Below, piece after piece: positions 6,350 through 9,505 of a stretch of 64,000 bases of DNA. The translations under genes were made by a program, and so were the position numbers. The DNA comes from Bacteroidales bacterium (GTDB lineage: Bacteria > Bacteroidota > Bacteroidia > Bacteroidales > JAAUTT01), in contig JBBQTB010000013.1 in NCBI GenBank assembly GCA_038213375.1, positions 19,963 to 83,962 of the forward strand. Direction: 5' to 3'. Within the stretch, counting starts at the first letter, position 1. Each line of letters opens with the position of its first letter. Under the pieces are notes generated by a model that saw only the letters and a program-made list of their open reading frames with translations, ran no database searches and was not told the DNA's origin.

Positions 6350-9300
6350 ATGAAAACTGCAGAACATAAACCATCGCCCACGATATCTCGCAGTGCTAGC
6401 CCATTTTTTCGCAAAGGAATGGGGAGTGGCCATTTTCAGGCTAAAAATGATGAATCCTCATTTTTTAAAAAAGGTAGTACAAAAGAACCTGTTCAAGCTC
6501 AACTGAATGTAAGTCAACCAAACGATCCACACGAAAAGGAAGCGGATGCGATGGCCAACAAAGTGGTACAACGGATGGGAAATGCAGAAAAGGGCACGAA
6601 AGAGGAAGATAAGGGATCGAATAAAATTACACCTGTAGTTCAAAAAAAATGTGCCGATTGTAATGAAGAGGAAAACACACAACGCAAACATGTTGAGGAA
6701 AACAAACCGGTAAATAAAAAAGCAAATGAAAAACCGGAAGATAAACATGTTCAACAAAAAACAAGCGATCCATTAAAAGATGATAAATCGGTACATCGAA
6801 AAGAGGAGAAACAGGATTATGACGATGATATAAGCGTTCAAAAGAAAGAGGATGACGACCAAGCATCAAGTCAACCGGATCATGCTGTCATTGAAAATAA
6901 GTTAAATAACTATCGGGGGAATGGTACTCCATTGGCCAGCGATACCCGCAAAAACATGGAATCGGCCATGGATGCAGATTTTTCAGGGGTACGCATCCAC
7001 AATGACCACAATGCAGCACAGTTGAATAAAGATTTAAGTGCACATGCCTTTACACGCGGCAATGATATCTATTTCAATGCTGGAAAATACGATGATACAA
7101 GCAAGCAGGGCAACGAGTTGCTTGCACATGAACTTACCCATTCGCTACAACAGGGAACCAGCATAAAACGCAGCAGTCAGGTAGGCTCCAGATCGAATGA
7201 TTCTCATTTACATTCCGCAGTAAGTCGTGCTGCCTTTACACCCCACTTGCAGAAAAAGGATGGCGACCCTAAAACACCAACAGCTTCCGAACTTATTGAT
7301 AAATACACAACACTGGGATTTTTGTCTGAAGCAAAACTGGTAGGTGAGTTGGTAACGTATTTACCTGCGAATATCCAATTGGTAAATGATGTTTTGGATA
7401 AAGTTCACGATTTTCAAAAGGATGATATCGCTTACGAAACAACCATTGCCTTGGGATCTAAGATAAACACTGTTCCGGTAAGCCTTCGTATCCGGCTTAT
7501 CAAAGAGATGGTTTATGGGTTTGTTTCCGACACAGAAGAAAAGGCTATTTCGGATATCTGGAAAAGTTTTGATGATCCTACACGACCATTTATTGCAGAA
7601 GAAAACAGGGCCGTATGGGATAAATCTCTTAACGAAAGTGAATACCTGGTACAGTTTGTAAAACCACAAGTTGATGCTTTTATTGCTGATGTTACAGGTT
7701 TAGCACAGGCTTATCTTGAGGAAAATGAACATGTTGTGCAAAATGATGCCAGTCAATATGGTATTAACCTCGAAAACCCCTATGAAAAGCTGGATAAGGA
7801 AAATGAGCACTTTCAGTCCGTAAAAGCCATGATTCCGGGTATAATAACCCTTAAAAAGCAATTGGAGGATATGCGTAAGCTCCGGGTAGGTTACTACAAT
7901 AAACCAGATTGCCTGGCAGGTGAATGTTTGGGAGATTCATTTTTTAATCCGGAATATGAACCTTCTGTTCCACCTAAAAAGACTGAATCACCTCCTTGGC
8001 CTGAATGGAAAGATGTTAAAACACAATATGATAGGGTGAGTGCTTTGATTGCATCATTTTCAGAAATTTATCCATCCATATACATTCTTATCCAACAAGA
8101 TAAACTGGATACGCTGGATCAATCCAAAGATTCGACAGAAGCCTTAAAAGTAATTGCAGATGCGTTGGTAAAAACACGTGGAAAAATTGTGGAAGCAAAG
8201 GGGAAAATTAATATCTCGATACAATATACCGACCTGAAAATGACACAGGTTCAATTGTTTAACAAAACATCAGCAGTACCTTTTGAAACACGTTTTCCTT
8301 GGGATAAACCTTATTATAAGGACATTGCAGATGCTGACCTGAAAGGCAAAGCTGAAAAACAATTCTGGGTCGACCTGGGATTGAGCATGTTGGCAGCCGC
8401 AGCCTTGATTGCAGCTCCATTTACGGGAGGTGCCTCCGCTGCTTTATTGATTGGATTTGGTTTGGGTATCGGTTTGGGACAAGCTGTAAATAGTTGGGAT
8501 AAATACCTGAATATGTCCACCGTTGGCGATGCGTCCGCCAAGGATGAATTGTCACTTATTTCAAAGGGTGAAATTAGTGCTCAATTAGTAGATGCAATTG
8601 TAAGTACGGTAGCGTTATTTTTAGATGCTTATGGAGCAAAAGCCGCTACATCCGGAGCAAAAGCAAGTCGCGAAGCATTTGAGTTGGCCGAAAAAGAGGT
8701 GCAGGCCCAACTTTCTCAAGCTGCCCGGCAAAAAGCTTTGAAAACTATTGCCAAGGATGGTGCAATAGCCATTGGGGGTGCGGGAGTTTCCGTTGCATTG
8801 CACGAATTGGAAAATGACGAACCGGATTATAACATTGGGGGTTCAGTTACAAACCGAACGATTGACCTGGGACCGGATGATGACTCAACCCCACCCGATC
8901 CGGTAAATAAAATGCCCATTCAGCGTGTCCCAAATCAGCCCGTTGCTCCTACTGTTCCAAAGGCTCCTCTGGTATTAACCGGGGGTGAGTTTGAACTTTT
9001 TGCAGAAAAAGCTTTGCGACAAGGTCAGATTAAAGGTTTACCACGGATGGATTTTGTAATACCGGGTCAATATACTGGTTCTGGTTGGGGAATAGACCGC
9101 ATCGGAATAGTGTGGAATCAGAAAACAGGAGCCGTTGAAGTGTATCATTTGGAAATGAAATTTGTATCGGAAGGCTCACTGCATATTCCAGGGTTAGGCA
9201 CTCCTGTGGCGGGCACACAAACTGGCGAACGGTGGACAGCAAATGCCATAAAAGGATTTTTGGAAAATCAACATCCTGTTGCGCGTGCGGGTCGCGAACG

Positions 9301-9505
9301 CTTACGTAGAGCTTTGAATAAAATGCATCCAAATGAAACTATTGACCTTGCAAGAATGCGTTTATTTCTGACTGAAAAGTTAACAAATGCACCCATCCAT
9401 ATTATTACACCTGAATGGGCAAATTTAAGTAAACTGTATAAGCAGGTTGCAGCATTGATCCGACATGGTCGCGAAATTAGTATTATAAATAAATTCAAGA
9501 AATAA
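6350..9505 (+). CDS. DUF4157 cargo protein with glycine-zipper membrane segment and C-terminal PD-(D/E)xK-like nuclease domain
   Basis: 1051 aa. The DUF4157 core DFSGVRIHND...AFTRGNDIYF...LLAHELTHSLQQ has HELTH at nt 7127-7141. A hydrophobic Gly-rich stretch reads LSMLAAAALIAAPFTGGASAALLIGFGLGIGLGQ. The C-terminus has GIDRIG...YHLEMKF, with D at 9095-9097 and ExK at 9152-9160. Confidence 0.7.
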   Translation: MKTAEHKPSPTISRSASPFFRKGMGSGHFQAKNDESSFFKKGSTKEPVQAQLNVSQPNDPHEKEADAMANKVVQRMGNAEKGTKEEDKGSNKITPVVQKKCADCNEEENTQRKHVEENKPVNKKANEKPEDKHVQQKTSDPLKDDKSVHRKEEKQDYDDDISVQKKEDDDQASSQPDHAVIENKLNNYRGNGTPLASDTRKNMESAMDADFSGVRIHNDHNAAQLNKDLSAHAFTRGNDIYFNAGKYDDTSKQGNELLAHELTHSLQQGTSIKRSSQVGSRSNDSHLHSAVSRAAFTPHLQKKDGDPKTPTASELIDKYTTLGFLSEAKLVGELVTYLPANIQLVNDVLDKVHDFQKDDIAYETTIALGSKINTVPVSLRIRLIKEMVYGFVSDTEEKAISDIWKSFDDPTRPFIAEENRAVWDKSLNESEYLVQFVKPQVDAFIADVTGLAQAYLEENEHVVQNDASQYGINLENPYEKLDKENEHFQSVKAMIPGIITLKKQLEDMRKLRVGYYNKPDCLAGECLGDSFFNPEYEPSVPPKKTESPPWPEWKDVKTQYDRVSALIASFSEIYPSIYILIQQDKLDTLDQSKDSTEALKVIADALVKTRGKIVEAKGKINISIQYTDLKMTQVQLFNKTSAVPFETRFPWDKPYYKDIADADLKGKAEKQFWVDLGLSMLAAAALIAAPFTGGASAALLIGFGLGIGLGQAVNSWDKYLNMSTVGDASAKDELSLISKGEISAQLVDAIVSTVALFLDAYGAKAATSGAKASREAFELAEKEVQAQLSQAARQKALKTIAKDGAIAIGGAGVSVALHELENDEPDYNIGGSVTNRTIDLGPDDDSTPPDPVNKMPIQRVPNQPVAPTVPKAPLVLTGGEFELFAEKALRQGQIKGLPRMDFVIPGQYTGSGWGIDRIGIVWNQKTGAVEVYHLEMKFVSEGSLHIPGLGTPVAGTQTGERWTANAIKGFLENQHPVARAGRERLRRALNKMHPNETIDLARMRLFLTEKLTNAPIHIITPEWANLSKLYKQVAALIRHGREISIINKFKK

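Follow-up and report, generated by a model that had tools for sequence, protein, structure and literature searches.

About half of the toxins that a machine-learning survey predicted for extracellular contractile injection systems (eCIS) carry a DUF4157 domain, and 983 of 1130 of these have no annotated effector domain (PMC11297309). The present analysis concerns a protein of this kind, here called cargo 2, which is encoded in a stretch of 64,000 nucleotides from a Bacteroidales bacterium (GenBank assembly GCA_038213375.1, contig JBBQTB010000013.1, positions 19,963 to 83,962 of the forward strand). The whole stretch is referred to as the window, and nucleotide (nt) positions are counted from its first letter. 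Judged from its genes alone, cargo 2 is a DUF4157 (eCIS_core) cargo of an eCIS. Taken together, the results are best read as an eCIS cargo toxin that resembles Cgo1 and Cgo2 of AlgoCIS, ends in a PD-(D/E)xK nuclease and is followed by its immunity protein, a reading to which we assign a probability of roughly two in three (0.68). The elements on which it turns are the following.

6350..9505, + strand: cargo 2 gene, encoding a 1051-amino-acid (aa) eCIS cargo and polymorphic toxin (open reading frame list, translation and eCIS_core match)
8975..9505, + strand: C-terminal PD-(D/E)xK-like domain, aa ~876-1051, ~175 aa (family search, conservation, AlphaFold2 model and fold matches)
Within this domain, conserved residues: E882 (nt 8993-8995), D916 (9095-9097), E935-x-K937 (9152-9160), Q957 (9218-9220) and W962 (9233-9235)
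9513..10373, + strand: partner gene, encoding a 286-aa protein, candidate cognate immunity (starts 7 nt past the cargo 2 stop codon)

Relation to described systems

AlgoCIS from Algoriphagus machipongonensis is a described system with a similar arrangement of cargo genes. According to the available parts of its descriptions (PMC8894135; bioRxiv 10.64898/2026.05.27.728243), the AAA+ ATPase Alg15 is required to bring the cargos Cgo1 and Cgo2 into the tube lumen, and their disordered N-terminus is the loading signal. In the same sources, loading does not depend on DUF4157, and the C-terminal part, a predicted metalloprotease in Cgo1, is taken as the effector. As far as these parts go, the window and AlgoCIS have in common two adjacent DUF4157 cargo genes in an eCIS operon that also encodes an AAA+ ATPase, and in each case the two cargos combine a common N-terminus and a central DUF4157 with a variable C-terminal domain. 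The lengths differ, being 1205 and 1051 aa in the window versus 498 and 1228 aa in AlgoCIS. Moreover, a candidate nuclease at the C-terminus, a hydrophobic hairpin and a candidate immunity gene are seen in the window, whereas none of these was found for the AlgoCIS cargos in the available parts of the descriptions.

The C-terminal end of cargo 2 resembles other toxins. PoNe is a PD-(D/E)xK polymorphic toxin that is placed C-terminal to diverse delivery domains and is followed by its cognate immunity gene, PoNi (PMC6688995), a layout also seen here. The motif strings, compared by description only, are Kx3GE...GIDx2Y...Yx3ExK for PoNe (PMC6688995) and GxxFE...GIDxIG...YxxExK for the window family; GE, GID and ExK are common to both, while the K, the Y after GID, the spacing and the flanks differ. 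In addition, PoNi has DUF1911/DUF1910, of which the window partner shows no signal at E<=10. BaCT, in turn, is a PD-(D/E)xK-type Mg2+-dependent DNase with an invariant ExK that is sometimes fused to DUF4157 and has its BaCTic immunity gene immediately downstream (PMC7073777). BaCT domains measure ~220-330 aa and their immunity proteins mostly ~320-360 aa; 93 of 97 occur in Bacteroidetes, mostly on TANFOR/Fn3 proteins and also on PT-HINT/DUF4157 proteins (PMC7073777). The DUF4157 fusion is thus common to BaCT and the window family. Compared by description only, the window family differs in its shorter domain (~175 aa) and partner (286-298 aa) and in its occurrence in Cyanobacteria and Actinobacteria as well. 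No Fn3 domain was found in the 45 long members of the window family, a screen that did not include TANFOR (TIGR02542). The domain may be distantly homologous to PoNe or BaCT. PT6, another DUF4157-fused toxin (Nachmias et al.), acts in the periplasm and is non-toxic in the cytoplasm, and is therefore unlikely to belong to the window family.

The C-terminal domain is probably a PD-(D/E)xK nuclease

A first-pass annotation of this DNA had pointed to a D...ExK pattern in the C-terminal end of cargo 2, with the D at nt 9095-9097 and the ExK at nt 9152-9160, and all of its motifs are present where it had placed them. GIDRIG spans aa 914-919 (nt 9089-9106) and YHLEMKF aa 932-938 (nt 9143-9163); D916 and E935 are separated by 18 residues. 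By itself, the D...ExK pattern is at chance level and uninformative: in its bare form, D-x(10,30)-[DE]-x-K, it has 24 matches in cargo 2, and 28% of shuffled versions of the C-terminal 201 aa contain it as well. When the hydrophobic strand context is added, 0.07 matches are expected per shuffled protein. Because the bare pattern is found this easily, the real evidence for the motif is its conservation.

This conservation was determined across a large family. A word-indexed homology search gave five relatives of the C-terminal 201 aa, and when 1.84 billion cluster representatives were searched exhaustively with a profile of the C-terminal domain, 75 were found at E<=1e-3, with 44 at E<=1e-10. 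They come from Cyanobacteria, from Actinobacteria and from lineages of low GC content, probably Bacteroidota, and in nearly all of them the domain lies at the extreme C-terminus. In the long proteins P0039, P0055 and P0056 (1289-1749 aa) it is internal, with 460-930 further residues behind it. The D...ExK residues, which according to the first-pass annotation should be conserved in homologs, proved to be so throughout: D916, E935 and K937, together with G914, are invariant in all 66 domain copies that were aligned from the 75 representatives. E882 is present in 60 of the 60 copies covering that position, Q957 and W962 in 65 of 66 each, and G955 in 63 of 66. The pattern was confirmed on a subset of 36 sequences, with pairwise identities down to about 24-30%. 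Among the 45 long members, the N-terminal companion of the domain is eCIS_core in 14, PG_binding_1 in four, SH3_3 in three and another or an unrecognized region in the rest. Going by these sequences, being joined to different N-terminal regions is the behavior of a polymorphic toxin.

The predicted fold is consistent with a nuclease. An AlphaFold2 model built from the 36 sequences (predicted local distance difference test, pLDDT, 88.2; predicted template modeling score, pTM, 0.80) contains, in domain numbering, a helix at 28-41, strands at 52-57, 64-72 and 79-86, three helices within 110-161, a strand at 166-171, a helix at 177-188 and a strand at 193-199. The predicted topology is thereby alpha-beta-beta-beta-alpha-beta, that of the PD-(D/E)xK core. 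In the model, E882 (domain residue 32) is located in helix 28-41, D916 (residue 66) near the start of strand 2 (64-72), E935 (residue 85) at the end of strand 3 (79-86) and K937 (residue 87) just after it. If these two strands form an antiparallel hairpin, the start of strand 2 would adjoin the end of strand 3, and D916 should therefore be a neighbor of E935 and K937. When the model was compared with the PDB using Foldseek, ranks 1-4 were taken by HamA of Hachiman (8vxy_A), MspJI (4f0p, two chains) and AspBHI (4oc8), with PaqCI lower in the list. None of these matches is significant, but all are to PD-(D/E)xK nucleases. As the best structural matches, HamA, MspJI and AspBHI differ from the proposed role of the domain in that they work in defense or restriction, not as secreted toxins. 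Matches in a viral fold library were weak and none was significant; they were enriched in the names PD-(D/E)xK, restriction endonuclease, resolvase and MmcB.

Curated families place the domain less precisely. The first-pass annotation had likened it to the Tox-REase modules, and Tox-REase-2, -3, -5, -7 and -9 are indeed restriction-endonuclease-fold toxins at the C-terminus of secreted multidomain proteins. Membership was not borne out, as the Tox-REase models of Pfam match neither cargo 2, whose aa 851-1051 match no Pfam family even at E<=10, nor any of the 36 family members at E<=1. Sub-threshold Pfam and NCBIfam matches among the 36 members were to DUF234 (5 of 36), Mrr_cat (1 of 36) and Hjc (1 of 36), all of which we take to be PD-(D/E)xK-type families. 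A single match to Imm49 (E 0.044), in one toxin-domain member, was regarded as noise. Full-length cargo 2 has no NCBIfam match, and a scan of viral contigs found nothing. At the level of sequence comparison, the C-terminal domain is thus a previously unnamed family outside the curated and characterized toxin families that could be tested here, with PoNe and BaCT compared by description only. The restriction-endonuclease-like domain that the first-pass annotation had proposed, and for which it had suggested a structure prediction and a fold search, stands as regards the invariant E...D...ExK...Q set, the predicted core and the nature of the four top PDB matches; a significant fold match is what it lacks. 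Assignment of the C-terminal ~175 aa to the PD-(D/E)xK superfamily is probable on the basis of the model, and the conserved residues mark the domain as a candidate that probably has nuclease activity.

A partner gene follows the nuclease domain

The partner gene directly downstream of cargo 2 was missed in the first reading. Its product is a helical, soluble protein with a maximum hydropathy of 0.99 and no transmembrane segment. Searches with the partner and its homolog in L001, a metagenome contig, against Pfam at E<=10 gave weak matches to TPR only (E 0.0016 for the window protein), and PoNi, Imm49 or any other known immunity family finds no support at this threshold.

The association between partner and nuclease domain was followed in both directions. 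When species-representative genomes were scanned with the toxin domain, four loci emerged, in the cyanobacterium Alkalinema pantanalense (L003), a Microbacteriaceae member (L004), an actinomycete metagenome-assembled genome (L005) and Agromyces (L006). In L003, L004 and L005, the next gene after the nuclease domain encodes a partner homolog with 35-39% identity, and a homolog is likewise found directly downstream of the domain on a metagenome contig (L001). The reciprocal scan, which started from an alignment of partner proteins, gave five metagenome loci, and in the four with upstream DNA (L007, L008, L010 and L011) the nuclease domain is immediately upstream. Altogether, the partner accompanies the nuclease cassette in 8 of 8 closely related loci with readable adjacent DNA (L001, L003, L004, L005, L007, L008, L010 and L011), at an overall identity of 34-39%. 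A further locus, L002, is fragmented by frame breaks and uninformative for context.

The surroundings of these pairs vary. L003 has a clear eCIS context, with Pvc16_N, AAA, the DUF4157 toxin and the partner in this order, and its AAA protein upstream of the toxin is 45% identical to the AAA+ ATPase of the window. In L004, the neighbors listed are housekeeping genes (peptidase M20, aldo-keto reductase), and no eCIS or DUF4157 domain was detected. In L001 (positions 1293-3333), the toxin open reading frame begins inside the hydrophobic hairpin, lacks DUF4157 and has a frame break before the nuclease domain, with the partner intact; this orphan-like copy may reflect decay of the cassette or a fault in the assembly. 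L008 has kept DUF4157, the cassette and the downstream gene, while its middle region is unrelated to that of the window. Because the partner tracks the nuclease cassette in all eight loci, one of them with an unrelated middle region, an immunity role is supported. The linkage speaks more for a cognate immunity protein directed at the nuclease than for a chaperone of the hydrophobic segment, since L008 keeps cassette and partner although the middle region has changed.

The hydrophobic hairpin and the boundary of the cassette

Besides the nuclease domain, three elements upstream of it are conserved.

8363..8485, + strand: hydrophobic helical hairpin, aa ~672-712 (hydropathy; conserved in long members)
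8582..8644, + strand: second hydrophobic or amphipathic helix, VDAIVSTVALFLDAYGA, aa ~745-765 (hydropathy up to 1.59; conserved in L001)
8903..8926, + strand: pre-toxin motif V-N-K-M-P-I-Q-R, aa 852-859, with a Pro-rich linker behind it (where the exchangeable toxin cassette starts)

The hairpin consists of a helix, a PFTGG turn and a second helix with G-x-G-x-G-x-G-x-G that contains GxxxGxxxG. Its glycine-rich hydrophobic stretch, LSMLAAAALIAAPFTGGASAALLIGFGLGIGLGQ, spans aa 678-711 (nt 8381-8482), and the stretch VDAIVSTVALFLDAYGA in the second element spans aa 747-763 (nt 8588-8638). Kyte-Doolittle means over 19 residues reach 1.3-1.77 across aa ~672-712 and 1.59 near aa 751. The first-pass annotation had described hydrophobic stretches rich in small residues upstream of the domain, and the hydropathy peaks agree with this. 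Nearly all of the 45 long members have an equivalent hairpin, with T/S-G-G at the turn, at a distance of 130-260 aa upstream from the nuclease core. The turn is AAPFTGG in close relatives, and the hairpin persists where the surrounding sequence has diverged beyond recognition. As it is kept across long family members, the hairpin is a conserved companion of the toxin domain and not a local oddity.

Hydrophobic hairpins are known from translocation domains, and transmembrane helices from type VI secretion system (T6SS) effectors. In the Tse6/prePAAR class of T6SS effectors, N-terminal transmembrane helices require Eag chaperones, and the helices are proposed to carry the C-terminal toxin across the inner membrane. 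By analogy, the hairpin of cargo 2 may insert in a membrane and help the nuclease cross the cytoplasmic membrane of the target cell. It differs from the helices of that class in being internal, ~160 aa before the toxin domain, and in belonging to a cargo of an eCIS.

The boundary of the cassette is marked by a motif of a hydrophobic residue, Q and R (hQR). Within 45 aa upstream of helix 1, [IVLMF]Q[RK] is present in 41 of 58 members, compared to 13.4% of background windows (binomial p ~3e-23). BLAST homology to the window protein restarts at aa 852 in L008 and at aa 847 in L006, which is why the motif is taken to mark the boundary; VENN is a comparable boundary marker in CdiA. Similar hQ(R/K) motifs flank DUF4157, at aa 73, 97, 134, 163 and 300 of cargo 2 and at aa 67, 176 and 183 of the other DUF4157 cargo of the operon. 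That they are processing sites is speculation.

The N-terminal part of cargo 2 and the eCIS operon

The remainder of cargo 2 and the genes around it are arranged as follows.

6350..6919, + strand: N-terminal ~190 aa of cargo 2, rich in K/E/D/S/N/Q, putative loading sequence (composition; AlgoCIS analogy)
6929..7159, + strand: eCIS_core (DUF4157) zincin-like domain of cargo 2, aa 194-270 (Pfam PF13699, E 9e-28)
7217..8359, + strand: middle region of cargo 2, aa ~290-670, of no known family (conserved in close relatives, tblastn)
1264..2682, + strand: contractile injection system tape measure protein (Pfam PF19268, CIS_TMP, E 1e-104)
2685..6302, + strand: cargo 1, the first DUF4157 protein, 1205 aa, with a deaminase-like C-terminus (eCIS_core, E 4.5e-28)
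10438..11904, + strand: AAA+ ATPase, Afp15/Pvc15/Alg15-like putative cargo loader (Pfam AAA, E 3e-29)

The first 75 aa of cargo 1 and cargo 2 show 44% identity; the C-terminal parts of the two proteins are unrelated. Both N-termini carry twin PFF/SFF-(R/T/K)K motifs, at nt 6401-6409 and 6458-6466 in cargo 2 and at nt 2739-2747 and 2796-2804 in cargo 1. The N-terminal ~190 aa of cargo 2 are probably disordered, given their composition, and the 75-aa N-terminus common to both cargos is, by analogy with AlgoCIS, probably a system-specific loading signal. Other low-GC members of the family (P0006, P0034 and P0046) carry similar N-terminal FF motifs. Nine of the 45 long members (P0013, P0016, P0019, P0021, P0024, P0030, P0032, P0037 and P0043) have an N-terminal LQRxxGNxAV motif at aa 25-60, which occurs with or without DUF4157 and mostly in proteins without HExxH; it may be the high-GC counterpart of the loading signal.

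The metallopeptidase-like head of the protein that the first-pass annotation had recognized corresponds to the eCIS_core domain, in which HELTH (HExxH) occupies aa 260-264 (nt 7127-7141). The middle region behind it gave no Pfam match and no PDB sequence match; in tblastn comparisons, identity is 37-46% over aa ~282-1046 in L003-L005, L007, L010 and L011. From this head, a translocation segment and a nuclease, the same annotation had put together a possible self-delivering toxin, which the gene neighborhood does not bear out. Because the cargo 2 gene belongs to an eCIS operon, with the tape measure gene on one side and the AAA+ ATPase gene on the other, and because cargo 2 has the same layout of N-terminal domain, DUF4157 and C-terminal domain as Cgo1 and Cgo2, it is rather read as machine-delivered.

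The operon occupies the left 12 kb of the window, which represent its distal end. In order, this part contains a 388-aa open reading frame, the tape measure gene, cargo 1, cargo 2, the partner gene and the AAA+ ATPase gene, and the tape measure, cargo and AAA+ ATPase genes form one tight co-directional block. The window starts inside the operon, and the sheath, tube and baseplate genes would fall beyond its left edge. The remainder of the window is ordinary chromosome, with dnaE, topA, carB, argG, nadE and a TonB-dependent receptor. Promoter and terminator scans over positions 1-14700 gave matches at or below chance. The DNA of the region is present in sediment metagenome, and two metagenome DNA runs carry it.

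Some further observations concern the neighboring genes. The 388-aa open reading frame upstream of the tape measure gene (68-1234) has no Pfam or NCBIfam match, and a 483-aa, weakly TPR-like protein is encoded after the AAA+ ATPase gene (12106-13557); both may be eCIS accessory genes. The end domain of cargo 1 contains H-S-E (nt 5979-5987) and P-C-S-Q-C (nt 6096-6110), the zinc signature of cytidine/DNA deaminases, and its Pfam matches to deaminases are weak (XOO_2897-deam 0.077, dCMP_cyt_deam_1 0.18). No candidate immunity gene is present between cargo 1 and cargo 2. In the metagenome loci L010 and L011, a second DUF4157 gene lies just upstream of the nuclease cargo, the same two-cargo arrangement as in the window.

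Proposed mechanism and alternative explanations

The mechanism proposed here builds on the gene order, domain matches, family, invariant residues, topology, toxin-partner linkage and conservation of hairpin and hQR motif that were computed in this analysis. From N- to C-terminus, cargo 2 would consist of a disordered loading sequence, DUF4157, the middle region, the hairpin, the hQR motif with its Pro-rich linker and the ~175-aa toxin domain. The neighboring AAA+ ATPase would load it into the tube lumen, and until then the 286-aa protein would block the nuclease in the cytoplasm of the producer. After injection, the hairpin may insert into the cytoplasmic membrane of the target, helping the nuclease to cross. 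There, E882, D916, E935 and K937 would act as the Mg2+-binding residues that cleave phosphodiester bonds, with DNA as the most likely substrate.

Several results weigh against this interpretation. Neither Pfam, at E<=10, nor the PDB sequences gave a match to the C-terminal 201 aa (aa 851-1051); NCBIfam and PADLOC gave no meaningful match to the single sequence or to the 36-sequence profile, nor did this profile match any PDB sequence. An hhalign comparison of the family profile with E. coli Mrr gave nothing (probability 0.7%). The best Foldseek matches have E values of 0.029-0.25, template modeling scores of 0.31-0.33 and 9-14% identity. A first AlphaFold2 model, which was built from four sequences (pLDDT 73) and was discarded, matched unrelated folds (Kae1/TsaD, hydrolases) and no nuclease, and the clustering of the putative active site is deduced solely from the topology of the later model. 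Furthermore, L006 has a domain with 34% identity and no detectable partner homolog, and no RNA-seq runs carrying the region were found.

The lack of a significant match to any nuclease family or structure, together with the high frequency of the bare motif in shuffles, would be expected if D...ExK were a chance match in a non-catalytic fold. We give this hardly any credence, as four residues are invariant in the 66 copies in spite of their low pairwise identity, the secondary structure is in the correct register and the downstream partner gene is tightly linked. It is also very improbable that the glycine-rich hairpin is the toxic element, acting as a pore former or membrane depolarizer, with the C-terminal domain in an accessory role in binding or targeting. 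Strong hydrophobicity, the GxxxGxxxG motif and conservation across the family speak for the hairpin, but the invariant classic catalytic set (E, D, ExK, Q) lies in the C-terminal domain and not in the hairpin, and the conserved partner is a soluble protein without a transmembrane segment. Moreover, the partner follows the C-terminal cassette in L008 despite the unrelated middle region, and the L001 copy starts inside the hairpin yet retains the partner gene. Instead of conferring immunity, the partner could act as a chaperone or adaptor of the TPR type, shielding the hairpin or handing the cargo over to the AAA+ loader in the manner of T6SS Eag or type III secretion system class II chaperones. 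This would account for the weak TPR matches and for the position of the gene between the cargo and AAA+ genes, and a hydrophobic hairpin would need such shielding. This role is nevertheless improbable: the partner accompanies the cassette among the housekeeping genes of L004, where no eCIS or DUF4157 domain was detected, it is kept in L008, whose sequence shows no homology in the region that contains the hairpin, and it is found beside the truncated copy of L001, whereas cargo 1 of the same operon has no such partner.

If the domain is a nuclease and the partner its immunity protein, RNA, e.g., tRNA, could still replace DNA as substrate. Some contact-dependent inhibition toxins with the PD-(D/E)xK fold are tRNases, and the invariant residues, the topology and the fold matches do not separate DNA from RNA. 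An RNA substrate is unlikely, because the best fold matches are DNA endonucleases and because PoNe and BaCT, the toxins nearest in context, are Mg2+-dependent DNases (PMC6688995, PMC7073777). A more far-reaching version of the proposal regards the PFTGG hairpin, the hQR motif and the nuclease as a self-translocating cassette, in which the hQ(R/K) motifs are processing sites, possibly for the DUF4157 zincin as a cargo-maturation protease. Here, the eCIS or another route would leave the unfolded cargo outside the cytoplasmic membrane, and the hairpin would insert and carry the nuclease across. This version is rather doubtful; if true, it would give DUF4157 its long-sought function.

Significance

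Cargo 2 adds a new member to a well-known class of bacterial weapons. With the reading of an eCIS cargo that ends in a candidate nuclease and is followed by a candidate immunity protein, one of the "dark" C-termini of DUF4157 proteins gains a concrete identity, as a compact nuclease-fold toxin family with ~75 cluster representatives. This family is accompanied by a new cognate immunity-like family, and the boundary of its cassette is defined. Both the hairpin and the hQR motif offer handles on how eCIS cargo reaches the cytoplasm of its target and on what DUF4157 does. Finally, the toxin and immunity pair could be used as a selectable payload when eCIS particles are engineered.

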